DNA of 64,000 bases from Escherichia phage vB_EcoM_G37-3. The position numbers and the translations under genes are program-made. Below the pieces are notes generated by a model. The model had not been told where the DNA came from. It saw nothing but the letters and a program-made list of their open reading frames with translations, and searched no databases. Where the stretch lies: sequence record MK327941.1. The stretch is one strand, 5' to 3'. Below, in pieces: positions 5,745 through 61,770 of this stretch (its first letter is position 1; every line of letters begins with the position of its first letter).

Positions 5745-5769
5745 AAAAAGCCACCCCGAAGGATGGCTG
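5745..5769 (-). terminator. Rho-independent terminator after hoc
   Basis: Hairpin AGCCATCCTTCGGGGTGGCT plus T-run on minus strand. Confidence 0.6.
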
Positions 5770-5779
5770 ATAGATTTCA

Positions 5780-6990
5780 TTAAGCAGGATGCGTTTCACG
5801 AATGCGTAGAACTCGCTCTAACGTCGCTCGGTCCAGCTTATGTAACTCTTTGGAATGATACATGAAACCATTGCGAGATTCCATGCAAGTGCAATCACTA
5901 TATTTTTCTTCCGCTGCCGCGATCGTCTCCAGATCTTTGGCGTACTTGCTGGTTGAATAAACTTCTCGATCACGCCACTCTAACCCAGCCTCATTGAATT
6001 TAACAATCTCGTCAAATACCCACCATCCAATGTAGATAAATGAAGTTTTGCGCCACGGGATCGGGTGTACGTAACGAAACATTTTAACAACTTCCATTGA
6101 ACATTTTCGGCTTGTACTTGCTGCAACTTCTACTGTTTCATCTTCGATCTGTTGATATAGTTTAGCAACACACCAGAATTTGGCTGTGTCATCGTAAGTA
6201 GCACTCTCTTTGAACAGATGACCGTCTGGCATGATAGAAAATCCTTCCAGTGCTTCGCCGACCTCACTACCGATTAGAGTCGGTGACGGTTGCCCTTCGC
6301 GCTGCAAATACCAGTTATATTTGATCGTCAATTAGGCATACCGCTAGAATCGCCTACAATGTCCTCTGACACAACATAATTAAGTGATATCTCATTACCT
6401 AGTGCCACGGTCTTTGATTCCACCACATCCTGATCTACGTTCATTGTTGCCAGCATGATTTTAGTCGATGCGCTAGCGGCTGAATCTTCCGACTCGCCCC
6501 ACTTTTACAGTATACACGCCGTTTTTATCTGCTGTAAATTCTTGGATCGTAATATCCTTTTTTGTGTCTATAACGTCATCGCCCTTACTCCAACTATAAT
6601 GTAGTTCATAGTTGTCTGCTGGAGTCTTCCCACCAGAAAAATTGACTGTTGCATGTAATTCTACGTCTGTTTGTGATGATACGTAGAATGCTGCGGTTCG
6701 GTGATATTTACGATTAATGCAGCTTCTTCCATGAGGAAAACTTCAGATTCTACTGATGTCATCGTATCGGTATCTTGTACCGTTACTTTATAGCTACCCG
6801 CATTTTCACTTGTTGCGTCTGCTACAGTTAGCGTAGCTGTGCTATTTTCATGCGGTTGGTCGTCTTTTGTCCATGTATATGTCAAATTGCTGGGTAATGG
6901 TTCGTCACCCGCTACAGTCGCCGTTAAGGTGAAACCATCTCCAGCAAGAAAACATCTTTTGTTAGATTGTATTGATACTGTGAAAGCCAT
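5780..6990 (-). pseudogene. hoc: hoc (highly immunogenic outer capsid protein), disrupted by frameshifts
   Basis: N-terminal Ig-like domain (MAFTVSIQ..., TYTWTKDDQ, GSYKVTV) and C-terminal capsid-binding domain (YVHPIPWRKTSFIYIGWWVFDEI...ESRNGFMYH) both match T4 Hoc but lie in different frames; at least three frame changes near 6661-6742, about 6490 and about 6335. Confidence 0.75.
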
Positions 6991-7085
6991 ATAAAGCCAC
7001 TCCCATCGAAAATCCGAATTTAATTAATTGAAATAGTTGATTGTCATCAACCAGATAACCATTGCGAGATTCCAATACATGAGTA

Positions 7086-7250
7086 TTAGAATAGTGATGC
7101 AACGAGGCCGAAATAGTATCGATCTCGTCTGGGTATTTGTTCTGCTATAAAGTCTGCTGTACTAACAACAATCTTTAACAGAAGTGGATGACCAACGGAG
7201 CCATAAACCGGATCTTCTGTTTGATGTAATACATTGATTTTGTTAGACAT
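7086..7250 (-). CDS. Small hypothetical protein (54 aa)
   Basis: ATG at 7250 preceded by GGGAGA RBS. Confidence 0.4.
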   Translation of the reverse strand: MSNKINVLHQTEDPVYGSVGHPLLLKIVVSTADFIAEQIPRRDRYYFGLVASLF

Positions 7251-7330
7251 GTAGTTCTCCCTTTTTAATTGCATAACGGAACTACAATTAAAATTATAAC
7301 AAATATTTCACAACTTTTATCACCCAAAAA

Positions 7331-8056
7331 TTACTTGAGTGTGTGGAATTGGCTATGTTTAGTCTCTCGCACCTTGACAGACCCATCGCGTTTGATATAA
7401 TAGATCAGTGACTTGAGGGTGTCGTGTACATACGCGTGTGGGAAACGCTCTGGATACTTCTTCCAATCTGGAGTATTAACGATCCAGTCGAAAATCCACC
7501 ACGGGCAGGAGTAGTAACCACGACCGCCACCGATCAAACAAATGGTTGGACGGAAACCAGTAAGATCGCAAAATGAATCAGTGTCATGTGCAGGAGAACG
7601 ATGTTCGGCTTCGTCAGAGAAAATGTTTGCTACCGGAGATTTCACTTTAACTTCCGGTGCTTCTTCAACATCTGACTTAACTTCTTCGACCACTGGTTCA
7701 ACTGCTGGAGATTCTTCTTTTGTTTCTTCAATGACGATCTCAGGTTCTTTCATTGCTTCAACCAGAGACGGATCAACTTCGTCGAATACTACTTTATCAT
7801 CTGCGGTGTCTGCTGCCAGAATAAGATCGTTAATACTGGTTCCTTCTGCCGGAGTTTCTTCTTCCATTTCGGAAGCCAGTTTAGTTAATTCGGTTTCTAC
7901 GAACTCGATCATGTTCTCTAGTGAGAACGTCTTTTTGACCTTAATATCAAATTGTTTTGCGTAGTCCGCTAATTCTGTTTTAGCGGTTTTCTGTGCTTCT
8001 TTGTCGTCGGACGCCGCAATAGCGCGGAGTTCTTCGAAATATTCTTTATCAAACAT
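7331..8056 (-). CDS. inh: Inh-like protein (prohead protease inhibitor) with Hoc-type C-terminal domain
   Basis: Acidic middle region; C-terminus CPWWIFDWIVNTPDWKKYPERFPHAYVH resembles Hoc capsid-binding domain; position matches T4 inh. Confidence 0.5.
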   Translation of the reverse strand: MFDKEYFEELRAIAASDDKEAQKTAKTELADYAKQFDIKVKKTFSLENMIEFVETELTKLASEMEEETPAEGTSINDLILAADTADDKVVFDEVDPSLVEAMKEPEIVIEETKEESPAVEPVVEEVKSDVEEAPEVKVKSPVANIFSDEAEHRSPAHDTDSFCDLTGFRPTICLIGGGRGYYSCPWWIFDWIVNTPDWKKYPERFPHAYVHDTLKSLIYYIKRDGSVKVRETKHSQFHTLK

Positions 8057-8082
8057 GTTATTCTCCTGATTGGGGGTGTTTG

Positions 8083-8090
8083 TATAAATA
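8083..8090 (+). promoter_or_regulatory. Late promoter TATAAATA upstream of uvsW
   Basis: Exact TATAAATA about 37 nt upstream of ATG 8127. Confidence 0.5.
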
Positions 8091-8126
8091 TTTGTATACT
8101 GTATTTATTGAGTGAGGCTATTCGCT

Positions 8127-9814
8127 ATGCAAGATATTAAATTCACTTTCTGAACTACTCCCATGTTCAAATTGAATGTAGCGATTCAATTTTATTAGAA
8201 ATGCGAGATTATTTTAGTTTTGAAGTCGAGGGAGCGCGGTTTCAAAAAAGATTTAAGTATGGTGGATGGGATGGGCGTATTCGTCTTTTAGATTACAACG
8301 GAAAGCTGCCAATCGGTCTAACTAAAACCGTGGGAATCTTCGCTAAAAATATGGGCTATAGCGTATGGGTAGATCCTCGCTTATTCGAAAAAGAACAAGT
8401 TACAGAAGAAGAAATTACAAAATGGTGTAATAACTTAGAATTATATTCCGGTGCTAACAGGATCACCCCTCATTGGTATCAATCAAAGGCCGTCTTTGAA
8501 GGTATTTCATCATAAACGCCGTATGTTAGTTTTGCCTACGTCCGCTGGTAAATCTGCGATTGCTTGTATGTTGTCTCGTTGGTACTTAGAGAATTACGAA
8601 GGGAAAGTGTTGATCATCGTTCCTACCACGTCGCTAGTGCTGCAAATGCGTGATGACTTTGTTGATTATCGCCAGTTTCCTTATGAAGCAATTCATACTA
8701 TCATGAGCGGTACTAGTAAACACGTAGGTGATCGCCTGATCGTTGTTAGTACGTGGCAATCTGCATGTAAACAACCTAGTGAGTGGTTCCAACAATTCGG
8801 GATGGTTATTGTTGACGAATGTCACAAGGCCACTGCTAAAACCTGCTAAACATCGTTACTGATATGGATCATTGTCAATTTAAGATCGGCATGACTGGTT
8901 CCCCTCGTGACGGGAAAGCTAACATGATGCAGTATGTCGGGCTTTTCGGTGATATTTCTAAGATCGTGAGTATTGACCGCCTGATGGAAGAAGGGCAGGT
9001 GACAAAACTGAAAATTAACTGTCTTTTCCTTCGTTATACCGATGAGGAATAGCGCGGTTAAGGGGCGAGAATATGCGGAAGAGATCAAGTACATTACATC
9101 TAACCCACGACGAAATAAGTTTGCTTGTAATTTGGCGCTAAAACTCGCTAAGAAGGGCGAAAACGTATTCCTGATGTTCCGCAACACTAAGCACTGAAAA
9201 TTAACTGTCTTTTCCTTCGTTATACCGATGAGGAATGTAGCGCGGTTAAGGGGCGAGAATATGCGGAAGAGATCAAGTACATTACATCTAACCCACGACG
9301 AAATAAGTTTGCTTGTAATTTGGCGCTAAAACTCGCTAAGAAGGGCGAAAACGTATTCCTGATGTTCCGCAACACTAAGCACGGAAAACTTATGTATGAT
9401 GCGTTACAGAAGGTACACGACAAGGTTTATTATATTGACGGTGGAGTTAAGACAGAAGAACGTGATGAATTTAAGAAATTAGCGGAAGGGGAAACCGGGA
9501 TCATTTGCGTTGCATCCTATGGTGTGTTCTCTACTGGTGTTTCCATCAAGAATTTGCATCATGTTATTTTCGGTCATCCAGTGAAGGAATCAACTATCGT
9601 TCGTCAGAGTATCGGTCGTGCATTGCGTAAACATGGTTCTAAGGATATTGCAACGGTCTGGGATCTTATAGATCATCTGGCGGTGAAGACAAAGAGCAAT
9701 AATGCTAAGAAACAGTTTAGCCACCTTAATTATGCTCTTAAACATGCGCTTGAAAGAATAAAAATTTACAACACCGATCGATTCGAATATGTCACGAAAA
9801 CAATCGAGATTTAA
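8127..9814 (+). pseudogene. uvsW: uvsW (DNA/RNA helicase), disrupted by frameshifts and a tandem duplication
   Basis: Fragments in alternating frames match T4 UvsW (FSFE..G.RF, GWDGRIRLLDY, LPTSAGKS, DECH, GSPRDGKANMMQYVG, VFSTGVSIKNLHHV, TVWDLID); frame changes near 8140, 8505 and 8840, plus duplication at 9009-9382. Confidence 0.8.
9009..9382 (+). repeat. Tandem direct duplication inside uvsW (186 bp + 188 bp)
   Basis: Copies 9009-9194 and 9195-9382 identical except for a 2-nt GT indel; copy 1 reads GAG GAA TAG (stop), copy 2 reads through; junction at GAAAA microhomology. Confidence 0.9.
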
Positions 9815-13763: not shown

Positions 13764-14281
13764 TGACAGAAACTAAACCTATGTTAAAATTTGTTGTTCC
13801 TGTAAAAAAATTAGAGATAAACGGGAAACATATCAAGATCCCAAAAATGGGGATTAAGCAACATCGATTATTAAAAGATGTTCGTAGCTGTGATGAAACA
13901 TTAAAGATTCTTCTTGATTCAATCTGTCCTGGGTTAAACGCTGCCGAGTCTGAATTGGTTATGCTTAACCTTTGTGCGTTTAATGGTAAGTGTCTGGAAG
14001 AAAAAGATGGTCTTAAGCTGTCTGATGTGTATATTTGTACAGAGACTGAATTTACTTTAAATGGTAAAGTCTTTAAATTTAAAAATCCAATGTATACTTC
14101 TGACCCCATTATCGATGACGCTGATTTCTTGAGTCATCATTATCACGATCCTAGTGTAGACTTCCATGATTTCCCAGCTTTTATTATGGATTGGGCTACA
14201 GGATTAAGAAAAACTATTGCACTGGATACACCGGAAGGTACTATCTATGGTGGAATTAACATATTGGATCGCCTATCATGA
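13763..14281 (+). CDS. 28: Baseplate hub distal subunit gp28
   Basis: 172 aa; synteny; ATGA stop/start overlap at 14278-14281. Confidence 0.7.
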   Translation: MTETKPMLKFVVPVKKLEINGKHIKIPKMGIKQHRLLKDVRSCDETLKILLDSICPGLNAAESELVMLNLCAFNGKCLEEKDGLKLSDVYICTETEFTLNGKVFKFKNPMYTSDPIIDDADFLSHHYHDPSVDFHDFPAFIMDWATGLRKTIALDTPEGTIYGGINILDRLS

Positions 14282-14305
14282 ATGACGCATTAACATCATT
14301 TCGGG

Positions 14306-16009
14306 ATGCGCAAGGAAGCGGAAGAAAACCCGATTGATAAACTTAACAAATTAGATAAACTTGATTCTATTGATAATTTGCAAGCCGCTACCGAATTGGT
14401 GGCGGAGACAGTGGAACAAAAATCTAATGAAGTTGTTGGTGCGGTAGAGGATAACACCGCAGCCAATGAATTGACGGCAGAAAATACACAATCTACCGCT
14501 GGCAATACCCAAAAAACTTATGAAGAATTGCAAAAACTCAATAATTTCTCTTCTCAGATGAATGAGAAATTACGTGGTTTTGGTGTTATGATGGAACGTA
14601 GATTTGGTGTTGTCAGTAAAATGGCTAGCGGTATTGGTGCGATTGAAGAAGCATTGAAAAAACCGGAACAACCGCAAACAATGCCATCACCTCAGCCAGT
14701 TTTGCCTACTGTGCCGGAACAGCCTAATAATGACAACTATCAAGGTCTTCCAAAGAAAAAACCAGATGTTGAGGAACGGAAGAAAAAGAACGCCACAGAT
14801 AAGCGTAATGCAGATTCTATGGAAAATCTTCTTAAAGTTGTTCGTGGAGGATTTAAAGAAACCATAGGTATCTCTAATAAGGTCTTAGGGATGTTATTTA
14901 AGATCACTTTGACCGCTATGGCAGAAGCCGCAAAATGGGGTGCTATTTTGATGGGTATTGTTTTTGTCATTGATACCCTGATGGTTCATTTCAGATATTG
15001 GAGCGATTTATTCGAGACAAAGTTCAGTGAATTTATGGATAAGGCCGGAGAATGGGCTGGTCCTATTAGCGATATTTTAACTACTGTTCGTCAGGTTCGA
15101 GATTATTGGTCTAAAGGCGAATATGGGGAGTTAATTAAATCTCTTGTTATGGGTATTGGTGATGCATTCTATAAAACCTTTATCCAACTTGATCGAATTA
15201 TCACTACTGGTATTGCTAAAATTCTTCGCATGATCCCTGGTATGGGTGATTATGCCGATAAGTTAGAATATGGTGCTTTAAAATCTGCTGTCGCTCAAGG
15301 CTATACGCCAAATGAAAGAGAACTCGAATTAATGGATAAGATCGAGTCTGAACACGAAGAAGACAAATATGGAGAGCGCACAGGATGGACAGGAAAAGCC
15401 CGTGATATTGGCGAAGCTATTGGGGATTCTATTAAGGATAAAGTTAACGAAGGTCTTGTTAGTCTGGGCTGGAGAGATCAAAAGGATGTTGACGCAGAGA
15501 AACGACAAGAAGAATTAAAACGCGGGGAATATAAGTCTGTTTCTGCTGAACAACGATCTGCTAGTCGTAAACTTAGAATTAAAAGCGAGGGCGCGATCAA
15601 TAATATTAATGAAGTTATGGAGAATTTGAGCGGTGACTATGACAAAGAAAGAATGGGAGAGTTGAAAAAGGATATTGATGTTTACCGTGAGCAAGTTCAA
15701 GATCCTACATTAGTTGAAAGTGATCGTTCTCAGTTAGAGCGTCTTATTGAAAAATTTGATGAGATGTATGCTGATAAAACTAAGGGTGTGGTTCCAACTA
15801 ATCCTGTTCCTGCAACTGAAACGGAAACAGCAAAACAAGCGGAACGTACTGAACAAATGCAGAAACAAGCTGCAATCCAGCAACAAACGACAAATCAGAC
15901 CTCAAACGTAAATAATACACAAATTGTAACAAACAATAGAACTATTAAACAGGGTGCACCAACAACTAGAATTGATGCTCCCGGTACAATTAATATGGGG
16001 AACTTTTAA
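14306..16009 (+). CDS. 29: Baseplate hub / tail length determinator gp29
   Basis: 567 aa; synteny; start uncertain (coupled ATG at 14278 is in another frame). Confidence 0.75.
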   Translation: MRKEAEENPIDKLNKLDKLDSIDNLQAATELVAETVEQKSNEVVGAVEDNTAANELTAENTQSTAGNTQKTYEELQKLNNFSSQMNEKLRGFGVMMERRFGVVSKMASGIGAIEEALKKPEQPQTMPSPQPVLPTVPEQPNNDNYQGLPKKKPDVEERKKKNATDKRNADSMENLLKVVRGGFKETIGISNKVLGMLFKITLTAMAEAAKWGAILMGIVFVIDTLMVHFRYWSDLFETKFSEFMDKAGEWAGPISDILTTVRQVRDYWSKGEYGELIKSLVMGIGDAFYKTFIQLDRIITTGIAKILRMIPGMGDYADKLEYGALKSAVAQGYTPNERELELMDKIESEHEEDKYGERTGWTGKARDIGEAIGDSIKDKVNEGLVSLGWRDQKDVDAEKRQEELKRGEYKSVSAEQRSASRKLRIKSEGAINNINEVMENLSGDYDKERMGELKKDIDVYREQVQDPTLVESDRSQLERLIEKFDEMYADKTKGVVPTNPVPATETETAKQAERTEQMQKQAAIQQQTTNQTSNVNNTQIVTNNRTIKQGAPTTRIDAPGTINMGNF

Positions 16010-21775: not shown

Positions 21776-21809
21776 TTGATACTCCTTAGTAGTTCGTTTC
21801 GGTATGTGT

Positions 21810-25969: not shown

Positions 25970-25983
25970 AATATTTTCCTCAC

Positions 25984-26292
25984 TTATAAAGTTTGACCGT
26001 TGTTTTTCGCGTAATGCTGAATGCGTGCTTGATCTGCTTCCGCTGGTGATAGATTCCATGCGATCACTACAACTTCTGACGCATCATGATCATTATCACT
26101 TACCCAATGATTATGATTCATACAATTGTTTGCTATCGCGTGAGCAAATGATCTCATTACCGGAGACGTATAATCATAGTAACGGATTTTCAGATTTTCA
26201 TCAACGTACAAGTAGATCGTATACGGCTTATATTCAGTAACCAGTAACAGACAGTTACGCAATTCTGGGAAAATCTTTTTAGTTAATTTCAT
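25984..26292 (-). CDS. HxHW-family small protein, member 3
   Basis: NHNHWVSDNDHDASEVVVIAWN; start at ATG 26292. Confidence 0.5.
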   Translation of the reverse strand: MKLTKKIFPELRNCLLLVTEYKPYTIYLYVDENLKIRYYDYTSPVMRSFAHAIANNCMNHNHWVSDNDHDASEVVVIAWNLSPAEADQARIQHYAKNNGQTL

Positions 26293-27484: not shown

Positions 27485-27775
27485 TTATTCTTTATACGCA
27501 TATTTCATAAATTTGTCTGCTACTTCATCGGCATGTTCCGATTCTACGCCGGATTCGAGAACAATAGCAAGGTCGGTTTCGTCGTGACCTTCGTACCAGT
27601 GATTATGTGTGTCGTTTGAATCAATATAGAATTTATCACCTTCGTAAGTTCGAGCAAATACATCTAAATTCTCGTCGATGTAAAAGATCCAATCTTCATA
27701 AAGAATAACCGTATTAGCAAGGTTCTTATTACCTTCAACGAAAGGTTCGGCTACAAACAAATCAGTACGTTCCAT
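27485..27775 (-). CDS. HxHW-family small protein, member 5
   Basis: THNHWYEGHDETDLAIVLE. Confidence 0.5.
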   Translation of the reverse strand: MERTDLFVAEPFVEGNKNLANTVILYEDWIFYIDENLDVFARTYEGDKFYIDSNDTHNHWYEGHDETDLAIVLESGVESEHADEVADKFMKYAYKE

Positions 27776-27790
27776 AGTATTTTCCTCAAA

Positions 27791-32590: not shown

Positions 32591-32631
32591 AATTTTCTTA
32601 CCTCTTCAATTCATCTCAATAGTAAATTATT

Positions 32632-33242
32632 TTATTTCGCGACCTTTGGATTTCGCCGCAGACCGGAATGTATTTGCGCTATACAACAATAAGAAACATT
32701 AAACATATCAGCTATAATTTGCTTCTTAACTTTTCCTTTAAGCCGCATTATTTCTTCGACTTGCGCATTTGTCAGTTTTGCCCGTGAGTGGTTTTCACCG
32801 ACATTGTTATTGAGTCCAGTTCTAAATGAATGTCTCATATTTTCTAGTAAGGTTACTATTTCTAGATTCCACACATAATTGCAGGTTTTACACCATTGAT
32901 GTGATTAACCTCAAGTCCGGTAACGTCTCCTAGAAATGCATTTGCTACAAGTCGATGTATCTTTTCGGCTTTAACTGAGATTTTACCATTGTCTTTTTGT
33001 TTTGACAATGTTGAATAATAATATCCATATCGGTCTAAAATTGGTTTTATTATTTTACCAACACGTTTTTGTTTTACGAGCTTAATATTACCGGGAGAAA
33101 CTTCTCTATAAAATTCGATACTTCGGTCAATAGATCTCAATCTACCATAATTAGAGATTTCATACCACGGATAACCTACAGCTTGTCTCCATTCTTCCGG
33201 CGCTGGTAATATGATATTATCATCTTTTGTTTCCATTGTCAA
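32632..33242 (-). pseudogene. HNH homing endonuclease (NUMOD4 + HNH_3), frameshifted
   Basis: N-terminal ORF has YEISNYGRLRS and HRLVANAF...VNHINGVK, then stops; next frame continues NLEIVTLLENMRHSFRTGL; single frame change near 32870. Confidence 0.6.
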
Positions 33243-39363: not shown

Positions 39364-40523
39364 AGATATTTCCCGAATCGGTTGTAGTCGTCGTCTGTTA
39401 AATCGGTATTAACCTGAGATACCAGATACATAATCTCTACTTCTTGCGCTGCATTCTGTACTTCGTCAGAGTTCAACCATTTACGCATCCACGGTAACGG
39501 ATGACGACGAACACTAAACGGGCTTTTCAGTCCGGCAGCACGCATACGGGAATCTGCCAGGTATTCTACATAGGTTTTCAGAATTTCCGGTGACAGGTTA
39601 GGAATTGCCCCCATTGCGAATAGGTGGTCTACCCATTCTTTTTCTTGCTCGACAACATCCAGAAAGATTTTCGTTGCTTCACCTTCAAGTTCTTCCGCAA
39701 TCTGTTTCCACTCATCACCATCAACCCCCGTTTGCCATTGACGAATAATGTATTGTGTGCCTTTTAAGTGAAGTTGTTCATCACGCGCAATAAATTTCAT
39801 GATCTTCGCGTTACCTTCCAGTAAACCACGTTCGGCAAAGCTGAAAGTACATGCAAAGGACACATAAAAACGAATTGCTTCCAGTGCATTGACGCAGTGT
39901 GCACACAGATAAATCGAAGCCATCAGATCTCGTTTTGTATCTTCAAAAAATCTTCTTGCATCATCTAATGCTGTCTGGTCGTCTCGTTCTTCCCAATAGC
40001 GGAGATCTTCTTTTGCATTCTCATACTTACGAATCCAATAAAGAACATCATCATAATATTTCCCGATAGATTCCGCTCGCTTCATGATAGCAGGGTTATC
40101 GATGATCTGGTCGAACTCACTAGCCGGATCAATGAAACAGTTACGCATAATGTGTGTATAGCTTCGGCTATGAATCGTTTCGCTGAATGTCCATGTTTGC
40201 AACCATGTATCGAGAGTTGGATCAGATACAATTGGACCAAATACACGGGCTGGCGCTCTGCCTTGAATCGAATCTAGCAAAGTTTGATAACGTAAGTTCT
40301 CGGTGAAGAAACGCTTTTCAACATCGCTCATATTCAGATATTGAATGCGGTCAGTTGCAAGTGAAATCTCTTCTGGACGCCAGAAAAATGACAACTGCTT
40401 CTCGATCAACTCTTCAAATACTTGATGACGCTGAATATCATAACGAGCAATCCCTAAATCACTACCAAAAAACATCGGTTCGGTCATAATATCAACATGT
40501 TCACGATTAAATACGCTCATCAC
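39360..40523 (-). CDS. nrdB: Ribonucleotide reductase small subunit
   Basis: 387 aa; R2-type ferritin-like motifs; synteny. Confidence 0.85.
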   Translation of the reverse strand: MMSVFNREHVDIMTEPMFFGSDLGIARYDIQRHQVFEELIEKQLSFFWRPEEISLATDRIQYLNMSDVEKRFFTENLRYQTLLDSIQGRAPARVFGPIVSDPTLDTWLQTWTFSETIHSRSYTHIMRNCFIDPASEFDQIIDNPAIMKRAESIGKYYDDVLYWIRKYENAKEDLRYWEERDDQTALDDARRFFEDTKRDLMASIYLCAHCVNALEAIRFYVSFACTFSFAERGLLEGNAKIMKFIARDEQLHLKGTQYIIRQWQTGVDGDEWKQIAEELEGEATKIFLDVVEQEKEWVDHLFAMGAIPNLSPEILKTYVEYLADSRMRAAGLKSPFSVRRHPLPWMRKWLNSDEVQNAAQEVEIMYLVSQVNTDLTDDDYNRFGKYL

Positions 40524-41079: not shown

Positions 41080-41245
41080 TTAACACAAAAGAACTTAGTA
41101 TTTCTGTTAACTTCGCTATCCTGCTGCAATTCCTGCACAGCTTCAAAACAATTTTGATGTGATGAAAACTCTACGCTGGTAACAGTTCCTTTATTATATA
41201 CGCCTACGCTAACGGAAAGCAATAACCATACAGTAGCCATTATCC
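41080..41245 (-). CDS. Small hypothetical protein (55 aa)
   Basis: ATG start; hydrophobic N-terminus MATVWLLLSVSVGVY. Confidence 0.3.
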
Positions 41246-41407
41246 TACAACCTCAAAGCATTTATCATCAGGAAGAATAGCCCATTCTACGCCATATTCA
41301 TCCTCAACGTAGTAGCAAGCCCCATCATGTCGAGCATCATATACATCACCGACAACAAAGCTATCAGCTAGCTAAAAATCTACAGCAACACATTTTAATT
41401 TGGTCAT
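41243..41407 (-). CDS. Small early ORF with in-frame TAG at codon 12
   Basis: Early promoter and GTGAGGA RBS precede ATG 41407; MTKLKCVAVDF-TAG-LADSFVVGDVYDARHDGACYYVEDEYGVEWAILPDDKCFEVVG. Confidence 0.3.
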
Positions 41408-47615: not shown

Positions 47616-48590
47616 TTACATCCCTAACAGAGCGTCAAGATCATCCAGATCAGAAGCGGAGGAAGTACCGCCACCCAGGTCCAGAGATGCCATCAGATCA
47701 TCAGCGGAAGAATCTAACGCCGTGCTAGCTGCGTTAATACCAACTACAGTGCTAACCGCGTTAATACCAGCATCGAATGCATTCATCTGTGCGTCAAAAT
47801 CGTCAAGCTGGCTGTTAATCGCTGCCGCAGCACTGGAAGCCGCAGCACCAGCTACCATAGACACACCCATAGTTTTCTTAAATTTGGTTTCCAGTTCATC
47901 GAACGGTTTAAACTGGCTAGGCGCTACAATCTCACTCAGGTCAACCATGTTTTCCATCAGATATTTCTGATATGCTTCGTCTTCAATTTTCGGAAGCTGT
48001 GATTGCTGCATGAAACGAGAATCATCATAGTTCTGGTGTTTATCAACCTTCTTAGCTTTCAGGAGGAAGTTAGCACCGGAGAACACACAAGTTACATCTA
48101 CCGGAACTTCGCCCATATCGGTATTCACGTTCACCATTGCAACGATCTTATCATAAATTTTCTGACCGAAGCGGAATTTGAATACCTTACCTTCATTTTC
48201 TGGTGCTTGAGGATCTTTCAGTACCAGAATATTTGCGTAGTAAGAGGCTTTACGCTTAATCAGTTGCCATTCGGTTTTATCGGTATTGTACAGGTCTTTT
48301 TCGTTAATATATTTGCACACAGGGCAAGAATCAAAATCACCGTGGGTGCTTGAGCAGTTTTCCCAATACCATTTACCATTAACTTTGAAGGAATGGTTTA
48401 CCAGTTTCACAATCGGCAGACCGTCTTCTGTCTTAGACGGCAGGAAGCGAATCAGGGCTTCACCGTTACCTGCTGCATCAGTCTTAATCTTCCACTCTTT
48501 CGGATCTTCTTTGGAGAAACCGTTGCCACCTTTCAGTGCGGCCAGTTGAGCTTGCAGTTTGGAAGAATCTTGGCGTTTAAACATATTCAC
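47616..48590 (-). CDS. 32: Single-stranded DNA-binding protein gp32
   Basis: Strong match to T4 gp32 ([49 protein letters not shown]). Confidence 0.95.
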
Positions 48591-58905: not shown

Positions 58906-61770
58906 ATGGCAGATTTAAACAGAATCCAATTTAAACGCACTAGCACTAAAGGTCGTAAACCTGATGCTAGTACGATGTATCCGGGGGAATTGGCAATCAA
59001 CCTTGCGGATCAATACATGTTTACTAAAAATGATTCGGGGACTCTCATCAATTTAAGTTGTCCTCCGGTGTATAACCGTGACGTTATAATGGCGGGTAAG
59101 GTTAAAGGGAATGATTATATTTTAAGCAAAACCGCTAATTATTTTGAAGACCAAACCGCGCGAGATCTTAATTATTTTGGTGCGTTTCGACCGAATAATG
59201 CTGATGGTTGGTCTAACTTGATTCTGAACATTCCTCATCCCAGCGGTAAAGCACACGGTCGCGGTTTTGAGTTCCAATATGGGTCCAGCTCACCTCAAGT
59301 TAAAACCTATGGCTTTGATAAAGATGGTAATAAGCGATTCAGCTTTCGCATGTATCACGAAGGTGATAAGCCTAGTCCGTCAGAATTAAATGTGTACAGC
59401 AAACAAGAAGTAGATCGGATGTTCCAAAAGACACTTGATTTTGGAACTGAGTCTGGTTGGTTTAAAATTGCTACTGTATATCTTCCGCAACACTTCGGTC
59501 GTAGTGCTAAAATTAGATTGGTTGGTGGTAATGGCTATAATGTAGGAAAGACAGATCGATGTAATATTATTGAATTAGTGTTGCGGAATGGCAACAATGC
59601 CCCTAAAGGAATTAATATTGTTGCTTATCATCACATTTCTGGGGGTGAAAACCAATTTTGTGCTATTAATACAAGCGACGATAATTATGATATATATGCT
59701 TATTATTTCGGACATACATCATTTGTTCTTGCTGAATATCAAGCGTCTACCGGTGTTAATTTAACTGTACTTGATCGACCTGAATATGTCGGCGAAAAAC
59801 CTGTAGCTGATCATATCTATGATGCATATACAATATACTCCTTTAACAGTTTCAGTAACCGTGGAACGTTAAATTTTGCTGGAAACCCTCAAGGCCAATA
59901 TGACATTGAGCATATGAACGAACAACCGACAAATGCTAAAAAGATGTTGCGTCGGTTTAGAAGCTCTGCTCTTTCCACTATCTGGCATGAAACCGTTGAT
60001 GACCAGAATTATCGTCTTGCCACTGGCTTTACAGATTCAGGTCAACAATTATTGCTGACAACAACCGGGTTACATGTCAAGAGATTAACATTGGATGGCG
60101 GTGCTGCGGGTGGAAATGCTGGTATTGATATTCGTCGAGGACCAAACGAAGCAAGCCATTTTAATTTTATGGATTATCGCACTGGTCAAGATGTTCGTAA
60201 TGGCTGGTTTGGTTTTGGTGATTTGACGACCAAAGATTTTATTTGGTGGAACGATAACGGTCAAAACTCGATAAACTTGGTCGAAAACGGTGAATTACAG
60301 ATTTCTGGCGGTAAAGGCCAGAAAATTGTAATGAATAGCGAAGTTGCATTATCTGAAAATGCTCGTTTGGCTGTTAGAGGTGGTAATTATGGCGTGATAT
60401 TCCGTAATGATGGAACGAGCTTTCATCTGCTTACTACCGATTTAAAAGATTCTTTTGGTAGTTGGAATAATCGCAGACCGTTCAGTTATGATTTCGCCGA
60501 AGGTGGATTAGATCTAGGTGGCACAACGACCGCTCGTTGTTTACATCTGGGAATTGATGGTAGTACCCGCATCGAGGATAACTTAGTTTTCCGGGCTGGA
60601 TCTCGTCAATCAATGGACTATATTGAAATGATCCATTGGGGTAACAGTAATATCGCTCGTGACAACGTTTTGAGTATGAAAGACTCGAAAGGATTCCTTG
60701 CTGAATTTGAACGCGTGGGTGGGACTAACGGCGTTAAAACCAGATTATTTGGCGAAACCTTCACTGACGGTACATTATACCTAAATCAGATGAATAATAG
60801 CTCTGAACGATTCTCTATCAACAATTGGGGAAATTCAGAAGTTGGACGCGCGGCAGTAATGGAGATCGGTGATTCCAAAGGTTATCACTTCTATACTGAA
60901 CGTAGAACAGATAACACCGTTTTATTTGATGTAGCTGGTGCTTTGACCGTGCATGGACCTAACGGAATAACCATCAAAAACTCAACTGGTGCACGCCATA
61001 TCTGGTTTAGAGATGACAGCGAATCGGAAAAGGCTGTTATCTGGGCTACAGATGAGGGTATTTTACATATTCGCAATAACCACGGTGGACAATTTAGTCA
61101 TCACTTCCAGGGTGCAATGATTAAAGCGGGAGAGCGTGTTCCATATAATAGTGAATACGCTCTTATCCGTGGTGATATTTCCGGTGGTGCATGGGTAGAC
61201 TGGCGAGCGCGTCCGGCTGGATTGTTGGTAGACTGTCAGGACTCACGAAATCAAGCATATAACATTTGGAAAGCTACTCATTGGGGCGAACAGCACCTTG
61301 CGGCGATGGGTGTTCATGCTGGCGGTGGTAATCCTCATGTTGTATTGCATGTGGGTGGGAATGATTATGCATTTGCATCTAACGGTGATTTTACTGCTGG
61401 TGCTGCTGTATATTGTAACGACGTTTATATTCGTTCTGACCGTCGTCTGAAAATTAATGTTGAAGACTACGAAGAGAATGCGGTAGATAAGGTAAATAAA
61501 CTCAAAGTTAAAACCTATGATAAAGTTAAATCTCTTTCTGACCGCGAAGTTATCGGCCATGAGATTGGTATTATCGCACAGGATTTGCAAGAAGTATTAC
61601 CGGAAGCTGTTAGCACTTCTAGTGTCGGATCTCAGGATAACCCAGAAGAAATTTTAACAATTTCAAACTCCGCAGTGAACGCGCTGTTAATTAAAGCGAT
61701 CCAAGAAATGAGCGAAGAAAATAAAATCCTTCGTGAACGTCTTGCTGCAATTGAGGCTAAATTAGGGTAA
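58906..61770 (+). CDS. 37: Long tail fiber distal subunit gp37 with C-terminal intramolecular chaperone-like domain
   Basis: N-terminus RIQFKRTSTKGRKPDAS..GELAINL matches T4 gp37; C-terminus IRSDRRLKINVED...GIIAQDLQEV resembles the S74 autoproteolytic chaperone domain. Confidence 0.8.
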   Translation: MADLNRIQFKRTSTKGRKPDASTMYPGELAINLADQYMFTKNDSGTLINLSCPPVYNRDVIMAGKVKGNDYILSKTANYFEDQTARDLNYFGAFRPNNADGWSNLILNIPHPSGKAHGRGFEFQYGSSSPQVKTYGFDKDGNKRFSFRMYHEGDKPSPSELNVYSKQEVDRMFQKTLDFGTESGWFKIATVYLPQHFGRSAKIRLVGGNGYNVGKTDRCNIIELVLRNGNNAPKGINIVAYHHISGGENQFCAINTSDDNYDIYAYYFGHTSFVLAEYQASTGVNLTVLDRPEYVGEKPVADHIYDAYTIYSFNSFSNRGTLNFAGNPQGQYDIEHMNEQPTNAKKMLRRFRSSALSTIWHETVDDQNYRLATGFTDSGQQLLLTTTGLHVKRLTLDGGAAGGNAGIDIRRGPNEASHFNFMDYRTGQDVRNGWFGFGDLTTKDFIWWNDNGQNSINLVENGELQISGGKGQKIVMNSEVALSENARLAVRGGNYGVIFRNDGTSFHLLTTDLKDSFGSWNNRRPFSYDFAEGGLDLGGTTTARCLHLGIDGSTRIEDNLVFRAGSRQSMDYIEMIHWGNSNIARDNVLSMKDSKGFLAEFERVGGTNGVKTRLFGETFTDGTLYLNQMNNSSERFSINNWGNSEVGRAAVMEIGDSKGYHFYTERRTDNTVLFDVAGALTVHGPNGITIKNSTGARHIWFRDDSESEKAVIWATDEGILHIRNNHGGQFSHHFQGAMIKAGERVPYNSEYALIRGDISGGAWVDWRARPAGLLVDCQDSRNQAYNIWKATHWGEQHLAAMGVHAGGGNPHVVLHVGGNDYAFASNGDFTAGAAVYCNDVYIRSDRRLKINVEDYEENAVDKVNKLKVKTYDKVKSLSDREVIGHEIGIIAQDLQEVLPEAVSTSSVGSQDNPEEILTISNSAVNALLIKAIQEMSEENKILRERLAAIEAKLG

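Follow-up and report, generated by a model that had tools for sequence, protein, structure and literature searches.

The closest described counterparts of the gene considered here are the Hoc proteins of the RB49 group of T4-type phages (RB49, AAQ15404.1; ECD7, ASJ80260.1; crystal structure, PDB 3SHS), which are full-length. Both loss of this gene and misreading of its surroundings have precedents. Hoc-minus T4 laboratory mutants, among them strains with hoc deleted that serve for display and for decoration in vitro, are viable without Hoc under laboratory conditions (PMC10385173). At uvsW, which lies close to hoc, a sequence error was once taken at face value: uvsW.1 was regarded as part of T4 uvsW until resequencing separated them (PMC1524935).

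Here we analyze hoc in a 64,000-nucleotide stretch of the genome of Escherichia phage vB_EcoM_G37-3 (MK327941.1), hereafter the window. The window comes from an RB49-like T4-type coliphage of the genus Krischvirus, with 96-98.6% identity to ECD7, RB49, Phi1, GEC-3S and about 50 other records. It shares with the RB49 group the hoc locus, its synteny and its terminator, but whereas those phages have a full-length Hoc, the window is short of 4 nt, spread over three sites, and encodes no full-length protein. Whereas the Hoc-minus T4 strains carry engineered or selected single lesions with a verified phenotype, the deposited G37-3 sequence shows three small deletions. The T4 error concerned the same locus as part of the damage described below; there, a single error fused two open reading frames, whereas here several indels split them. 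The break in hoc is either an assembly artefact or an unremarkable loss-of-function allele of a dispensable gene, and in either case it is ordinary. With modest confidence, we favor an unpolished, imperfectly trimmed contig-end join over biology as its source.

The broken hoc gene and its products

Judged by its sequence, the broken gene is hoc beyond doubt. It has 98.5% nucleotide identity to ECD7 hoc, with three gaps, and measures 1211 nt, as against 1215 nt (404 aa) for the intact gene in ECD7, RB49 and a second RB49 assembly. Putting back 4 nt yields an uninterrupted 404-aa Hoc that agrees with ECD7 Hoc at 398 of 404 residues and matches PHROG 1149, 'Hoc-like head decoration', at E=3e-83. 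The initial annotation had recognized Hoc at both the N-terminal and the C-terminal end, and the fragments taken separately bear this out. The N fragment (E=9e-21) and the C fragment (E=3e-40) both match PHROG 1149, the latter also matching PHROGs 14282 and 11091. Matches to the Pfam families PKD, Ig_3, I-set and V-set in the N part show that the N-terminal string of Ig-like domains is present. The Ig domains of RB49 Hoc in PDB 3SHS align with residues 1-304 of the repaired protein (E=2e-194), and residues 282-367 of 5VF3_Z (T4 Hoc from a capsid structure; capsid-binding domain) align with its residues 297-384 (E=4e-15).

The position of the gene is likewise that of the Hoc family, in that the order 24.3 - hoc - inh - uvsW is kept. 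The neighbors of hoc, ORF167/24.3 on one side and a small ORF/inh on the other, are the same gene by gene in ECD7 and RB49.

The frame changes were called by alignment to the intact hoc of ECD7, RB49 and the second RB49 assembly, which resolves them into three small deletions (Table 1). A split by at least three frame changes, with the phase alternating 0/1/0/1, had been described at the outset, and along the alignment the reading frame indeed runs original, -1, original, -1. The breaks had been placed at 6661-6742, about 6490 and about 6335, right within a few bases. Beyond the third deletion, both Ig domain 3 and the capsid-binding domain are encoded in a frame other than that of the start codon. 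In the Hoc family, the Ig and capsid-binding domains are parts of one polypeptide, as decoration of the capsid requires; here they are separated by three frame changes.

Translation from the ATG at 6990 yields 109 aa before it meets a stop at 6663-6661. This first open piece is annotated in GenBank as hypothetical protein G37_3_00168 (exact match, QBO64768.1), and a 150-aa version of the C-terminal piece is hypothetical protein G37_3_00167 (QBO64767.1, identical); the GenBank annotation of MK327941 already shows hoc as two hypothetical proteins. The 150-aa protein was met in a cluster returned by a protein search with the repaired Hoc, and exact look-ups matched further products of the window, namely Inh, gp37, gp23 and the 567-aa gp29, to G37-3 proteins. 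At face value, the only hoc product with a start codon is Ig domain 1 followed by nine aberrant residues. Because this product is without the capsid-binding domain, capsids would be Hoc-less.

Table 1. Position of hoc, uvsW, their lesions and other private changes in the window
Feature	Coordinates	Strand	Remarks
Intrinsic terminator 3' of hoc	5749..5768	-	intact; same site annotated as terminator in GEC-3S and G2494
hoc	5780..6990	-	frame-broken and non-functional as written; ATG at 6990, stop at 5782-5780
C-terminal Hoc piece	5780..6331	-	PHROG 1149 match, 5VF3_Z alignment
First open hoc piece	6661..6990	-	109 aa: Hoc residues 1-100 (Ig-like domain 1) and 9 out-of-frame residues
hoc lesion 1, -1	6687..6688	-	gene strand TTT to TT, Hoc codon 101; no counterpart in 56 relatives
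hoc lesion 2, -2	6500..6501	-	gene strand GTGT to GT, codon 164; coding returns to the ATG frame
hoc lesion 3, -1	6330..6331	-	gene strand TTT to TT, codon 221
Indel zone	6330..9200		eight private 1-2-nt indels in hoc, intergenic DNA and uvsW
uvsW, helicase gene	8127..9814	+	broken; four small indels and a 188-nt tandem duplication
uvsW lesion, -1	8139-41		
uvsW lesion, +1	8505-07		
uvsW lesion, -1	8838-41		
uvsW lesion, -2	9048-52		
Tandem duplication in uvsW	9007..9388	+	unit 188 nt; copy 1 9007-9200, copy 2 9193-9388
gp29 lesion, -2	14302-05		CGCGGG to CGGG, in the first 26 nt of gp29; private versus 58 records
HNH homing-endonuclease gene			two -1 events, private versus 11 records
55-aa ORF	41240-41407		private amber codon, GAG to TAG

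The lesions are private to G37-3. A span of hoc that measures 419 nt in the window is 423 nt long in all 56 of the 56 Krischvirus records that match this part, and therefore the hoc lesions are not chance variation. In the 12 relatives that were fetched, hoc is annotated as a single gene of 1215-1227 nt, and hoc, uvsW and the start of gp29 are all intact in 56-58 relatives. Some candidates for broken genes elsewhere in the genus were rejected. The entry 'UvsW (x2)' in W115 and KFS-EC denotes uvsW plus uvsW.1 and not a split gene, and the seemingly truncated Hoc of P0071 and P0076 corresponds to a scaffold gap and a contig end.

The deletion-junction k-mers of hoc were found in neither IMG/VR nor JGI metagenome contigs, with the IMG/VR control being weak in that the intact k-mer found only ECD7. 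A contig index searched for exact copies of two products of the window, the Hoc fragment and Inh, gave no match, and a literature search for Krischvirus hoc frameshifts returned nothing useful.

uvsW, the 188-nt duplication and the zone of private indels

The damage extends to uvsW. This gene is intact at 1503 nt in the 12 fetched relatives and is broken in the window (Table 1), with the late promoter TATAAATA at 8083 undamaged; at face value, UvsW is cut off after four native codons. The junction of the tandem duplication lies within ACTGAAAA/ACGGAAAA and shows 2 nt of perfect and 7/8 of imperfect homology, the latter having a chance probability of ~4e-4 to 1e-2. The 188-nt copies differ only by the -2, which is found in the upstream one, and it is this copy that is contiguous with the indel-rich stretch.

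That stretch crosses gene borders, its eight private indels lying at 6330, 6500 and 6687 in hoc, at 7255 (an intergenic +1) and at 8139, 8505, 8838 and 9049 in uvsW. Their density is ~2.8 per kb, and 6 of the 8 are deletions. The zone ends exactly at the duplication junction, 9200/9201, and it is flanked by 4.2 kb before and 5.1 kb after that hold no private indels. Private indels were listed against panels of five to nine relatives, with G2494 added for a count of 13 that leaves out 27790, a call at an alignment end. By this count, 6330-9200 holds 8 of the 13 private isolated indels that were listed for the first 51 kb (P=1e-7; ~2e-6 corrected for window choice). The inh gene in the middle of the zone is without a lesion (P=0.17).

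All seven 1-nt events lie within short runs (P=2e-4). The window has 299 runs of at least 5 nt, and only 2-3 of these show a private length change; the lesions are in runs of 2-5 nt.

Comparison of every ECD7 gene with the window identified ~85 genes without a frame-breaking change. Every long and essential gene belongs to this group, namely gp23, gp24, gp25-28, gp48, gp54, alt, gp30, nrdAB, td, gp32, gp59, rnh and gp34-37. Private indels outside the zone were seen at 1992, 2082, 14301, 35955 and 43752, in addition to the alignment-end call at 27790; such a number, 5-6 per ~50 kb, is not unusual, given that five other genomes have 2-15 per 50 kb. The 2-nt deletion in gp29 lies directly before the in-frame Met11, and the GenBank product of this gene is 567 aa, starting from the ATG at 14306. 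Two -1 events at 25976/25999 and a -2 at 21806 were rejected as lesions, being natural alleles shared with Sf20/TB34/SAP and G2494. Private substitutions in intact genes comprise 106 synonymous and 30 non-synonymous changes (78% synonymous), an excess from which it follows that base calls are good and that selection is effective.

The substitutions in hoc and uvsW set limits on the age of the damage. Together, these genes carry 7 private substitutions (2 in hoc and 5 in uvsW; 4 synonymous and 3 non-synonymous), where ~8 would be expected under constraint and ~25 under neutrality over the whole terminal branch (P=2.5e-5). The same two genes hold seven private small indels plus the 188-nt duplication, slightly more than the private substitutions, and nonsense codons were found in neither. 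Of the marks of a pseudogene, disabling lesions are present as the three frameshifts in hoc; an excess of substitutions or relaxed selection is not seen in hoc and uvsW, nor are the lesions common to related lineages (0 of 56 records). Because a signal of relaxed selection is missing, the lesions in hoc and uvsW are either recent or not real.

The initial annotation had weighed genuine decay against sequencing error. That reading is supported in part. Decay of a slow kind does not agree with the 7 private substitutions and the intact relatives. Decay in the form of a recent inactivation stays plausible, and error gains weight from the indel zone, the duplication and the sequencing pipeline.

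Origin of the lesions

T4-type genomes are circularly permuted, so a long-read assembler gives a linear contig both ends of which repeat one region. Reads in such repeated contig ends map ambiguously, resulting in poor polishing, and the depositor trims one copy and rotates the sequence. Untrimmed or unpolished overlapping ends of long-read assemblies of circular or circularly permuted genomes are a known artefact. We propose that the retained contig-end copy corresponds to 6330-9200, where indel errors of draft quality, biased toward deletions, would have persisted at short runs. Trimming would have missed the last 188 nt, and this residue would now be seen as a 'tandem duplication' inside uvsW. 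In the real phage, Hoc (404 aa) and UvsW would then both be intact, G37-3 would be one of the PacBio/HGAP genomes of its study, and the duplication junction would mark the old contig ends.

This proposal is compatible with how the genomes of the study were made, using PacBio RSII/HGAP3 or MiSeq/SPAdes, with circularly permuted T4-like assemblies brought into the arrangement of published relatives (Korf et al., 2019, PMC6563267). Because the pipeline re-arranged permuted contigs, original contig ends are now internal. In that study, G37-3 (MK327941) is a Krischvirus isolated from pig manure, with a genome of 167,832 bp, 283 CDS and 456x coverage (PMC6563267).

The structure of the zone also makes sense as a contig-end join. 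Such a join should leave a residual duplicate adjoined on one side by an indel-rich stretch, and the window has the 188-nt duplicate, with eight private indels in the 2.9 kb immediately upstream and 5.1 kb free of them on the downstream side. The bias toward deletions and the 1-nt events in short runs are typical of a draft long-read consensus. The only lesion in the duplicate is in the upstream copy, contiguous with the proposed error zone, and the rest of the sequence is clean (~85 intact genes). In favor of an artefact we also count the private indels that slightly outnumber substitutions in hoc and uvsW, the constrained level of those substitutions, the lack of nonsense codons, and the intact hoc, uvsW and gp29 start of the relatives.

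Several observations fit a contig-end join less well. Such an origin would be very unlikely if G37-3 had been made by MiSeq/SPAdes, and the paper gives both platforms without assigning either to G37-3. The coverage is high for an artefact of this kind; given a mean of 456x, a poorly polished zone of 2.9 kb requires ambiguous mapping of a duplicated end and not low depth. The 7/8 homology at the junction is expected of biological slippage or a template switch and not of a trimming error. The lesion-free inh in the middle of the zone is a further, non-significant point (P=0.17, as above). The sister genome G2494, from the same study and sequenced at 51.6x, lacks a comparable zone over the 50 kb that were compared. 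Outside the zone, the -2 in gp29, the two -1 events in the HNH gene and the amber codon are left unexplained, and real hoc-null alleles are present in other Krischvirus data.

If the contig-end join is the right explanation, hoc and uvsW, and perhaps the start of gp29, are wrongly annotated as fragments in MK327941, and a correction is due. Users of the record in comparative genomics, capsid display and phage therapy should then not infer that Hoc or UvsW is absent from G37-3.

The main alternative is that the lesions are real. Genuine recent inactivation, with all readings of this kind taken together, has in our estimate somewhat less than an even chance; its plausibility comes from four independent null alleles of hoc in public read sets from elsewhere. 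It is possible, if doubtful, that the G37-3 stock has a dead hoc and a dead uvsW and capsids without Hoc. The null alleles may, and we say so tentatively, have arisen by replication slippage at short runs in laboratory-dispensable genes, where they would be tolerated or favored. Later hits could have piled up in the dead genes, possibly via recombination among independent null alleles, a step that we likewise think rather unlikely.

The distribution of the damage speaks for real lesions. All frame-breaking private lesions in the 64 kb are at dispensable genes (hoc, uvsW, homing-endonuclease) or at a rescuable site (gp29), and 11 lesions placed at random would hit no more than four genes with P ~5e-6. 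Real lesions are also consistent with the microhomology at the duplication junction, the 456x coverage and the clean sister genome, and the private amber codon in the 55-aa ORF is a real loss-of-function change in the G37-3 genome. The initial annotation had called Hoc dispensable, and this is supported both by its being non-essential in the laboratory (PMC10385173) and by the hoc-null alleles in four other public data sets (-1, +1, W40stop and E201stop), in each of which inh and uvsW are intact.

The kind and arrangement of the changes are harder to reconcile with real lesions. The signal of relaxed selection is absent, as the private substitution counts given above indicate. The zone totals 8 small indels and 1 duplication, with no nonsense change in hoc or uvsW, whereas half of the other hoc nulls are nonsense. 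The intergenic indel at 7255 belongs to the same run as those in the genes, and gene-by-gene decay does not predict a one-sided run that ends at a duplication junction. Moreover, hoc is intact in 56 of 56 relatives, which argues for purifying selection in nature. Should the lesions be real, G37-3 would be a natural Hoc-minus, UvsW-minus Krischvirus isolate, convenient for studies of Hoc function such as mucus/cell adherence or particle dispersion.

A single repair event could also be imagined, although each of its steps appears improbable to us. A fork break or double-strand break in uvsW would have been met by error-prone recombination-dependent repair with a microhomology template switch (MMBIR-like), which has little likelihood as a starting point. 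It would have made the duplication of 188 nt, with slippage indels trailing away on one side for ~3 kb, an outcome that we consider similarly improbable, and the phage would have survived because the trail met dispensable genes only (uvsW, the inh region and hoc), for which we see an equally small chance. Such an event would account for a one-sided cluster of eight indels that adjoins a junction with 7/8 homology, for indels that are as frequent as private substitutions in hoc and uvsW with no substitution excess, and for changes that are all private and apparently of the same age, the copies being identical but for one lesion.

In yeast, frameshifts arise at a ~1000-fold higher rate along the tract that break-induced replication synthesizes, which counts in favor of a single event. 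We know of no such mutagenic tract described for T4-type phages, and the recombination-dependent replication of these phages uses the proofreading gp43 holoenzyme, which counts against it. An unpolished contig end makes the same pattern far more commonly, and the gp29, HNH and amber lesions elsewhere would still be unexplained. If a single event did take place, it would be the first footprint of clustered frameshift mutagenesis resembling break-induced replication in a T4-type phage.

Other processes can be set aside. Genome-wide random or homopolymer sequencing error of the 454, Ion Torrent or unpolished nanopore type is excluded by the clustering of the lesions, the unaffected long homopolymers and the ~85 intact genes. 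The substitution counts, together with an intact hoc in all relatives, exclude slow or old neutral decay, and random corruption in silico is excluded by the confinement of all 1-nt events to runs. Genome-wide mutation accumulation, through mutagenesis or a mutator, does not agree with substitutions that are 78% synonymous and with normal indels outside the zone, and a frameshift mutagen should have left hits in many other dispensable genes too. Programmed ribosomal frameshifting or bypassing at three sites to give a full Hoc has nothing in its favor beyond the existence of the frame changes, and we exclude it with near certainty: one uninterrupted hoc frame in 56 of 56 relatives leaves no conserved recoding site, a full product would take three unlike shifts (-1, +1/-2, -1), direct reading of the sequence at the lesion sites found no slippery heptamer (no X XXY YYZ in the 26 nt from lesion 1 to the stop), and stops occur within 8-60 codons in the shifted frames.

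Null alleles of hoc in other Krischvirus data

Four independent Krischvirus assemblies in Logan, each derived from reads, contain a single hoc-null allele, with inh and uvsW intact in each. SRR25247040 has a -1 at nt 794, ERR6384879 has a +1 near nt 213, and ERR14098126 and SRR23203958 carry the nonsense changes W40stop and E201stop, respectively. These alleles resemble the window in affecting the same gene in the same genus by small mutations, with the neighbors on the hoc side intact. They differ from it in that each has one lesion and an intact uvsW; in the window, hoc carries three lesions and uvsW five, and a duplication adjoins them. The recurrence of hoc-null alleles in independent public read sets suggests that Hoc is repeatedly lost during propagation, and we consider it a more useful lead than the lesions of G37-3.

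Loss of hoc and the inh-hoc interval

Single hoc-null alleles occur in four independent public Krischvirus contigs assembled from reads, and in each of them the neighbouring inh and uvsW genes are intact (Table). On the basis of these sequences, loss of Hoc seems to be recurrent within the genus. Relatives are annotated with two alternative, overlapping small ORFs in the interval between inh and hoc. The terminal segment of one of these, RB49p168.2, resembles the C-terminal tail of Hoc (YS..ESRNG[YF]; 9 of 23 residues identical, E=3e-5) and may be a remnant of a duplicated capsid-binding domain. Inh itself has a sole motif in common with Hoc, WW[IV]FD.IV.

Table. Features of the window and of external sequences; private changes are absent from the compared relatives.
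Feature	Position	Strand	Remark
hoc, L024 (SRR25247040)	nt 794		-1
hoc, L026 (ERR6384879)	near nt 213		+1
hoc, L025 (ERR14098126)			W40stop
hoc, L027 (SRR23203958)			E201stop
inh-hoc interval	6962-7250	-	two alternative overlapping small ORFs in relatives
ECD7_00169	7250..7086	-	small ORF, inh-hoc interval
RB49p168.2	about 7159..6962	-	small ORF, inh-hoc interval
uvsW, disrupted	8127-9814	+	four private small indels; 188-nt tandem duplication
uvsW-like helicase gene, E. coli CFSAN061761 chromosome (L019)	2918694-2920184		matches window 8306-9679
gp29 5' end	14278-14340	+	private -2 (CGCGGG to CGGG), 24 nt past start
HNH homing-endonuclease gene	32627-33236	-	two private -1 changes
55-aa hypothetical ORF, conserved	41240-41407	-	private amber, stop codon 41374-41372

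uvsW and its chromosomal relative

The private indels in uvsW lie at 8139-41, 8505-07, 8838-41 and 9048-52. The duplicate copies span 9007-9200 and 9193-9388, with 7 of 8 positions matching at the junction (ACTGAAAA/ACGGAAAA), and of the two copies only the upstream one carries a lesion. The late promoter of the gene, TATAAATA at position 8083, is undamaged. A perfect tandem duplication of 81 nt is also found in phage SAP (21826-21985), and short tandem duplicates, real or artefactual, therefore exist in deposited Krischvirus genomes.

Among 5426 complete E. coli genomes, 32 have on their chromosome a DEAD/DEAH helicase gene with ~85% DNA identity to Krischvirus uvsW. It resides within a prophage at ycdX, adjoining recombinase and tail genes, an arrangement that points to exchange of genes between T4-type and temperate phages.

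Other private lesions

The deletion in gp29, which encodes an essential baseplate hub/tail-length protein, directly precedes an in-frame Met11 in a stretch that is otherwise identical in 42 relatives. GenBank gives the protein as 567 aa from ATG 14306, versus 577 aa in relatives, and the change is either a residual sequence error or the mark of a gp29 with a shortened N terminus. The HNH gene, found in 11 of ~58 relatives and missing from, for example, OZ035808, contains nine in-frame stops because of the first of its private changes (A5 to A4 near 32885); the second, near 32632, falls in its last codons. The amber codon in the 55-aa ORF replaces E12 (GAG to TAG). Apart from this codon the allele is identical to that of phage phiS, and none of 57 records matches the window's allele at 100%.

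Natural alleles and divergent patches

Two -1 differences from ECD7 and RB49 at 25970-26000, where two small ORFs meet, alter the ends and overlap of these ORFs; they are not private, as exactly the same natural allele occurs in Sf20, TB34 and SAP. Four patches are very divergent from all fetched relatives: a 291-nt ORF (27485-27775; 36 private substitutions), the nrdB 5' end (40243-40506; 34 private substitutions), gp32 (47616-48590; 81% identity to ECD7) and the tail-fibre gene gp37 (58906-61770; 73-79% identity). These patches look like imports from unsampled source lineages.
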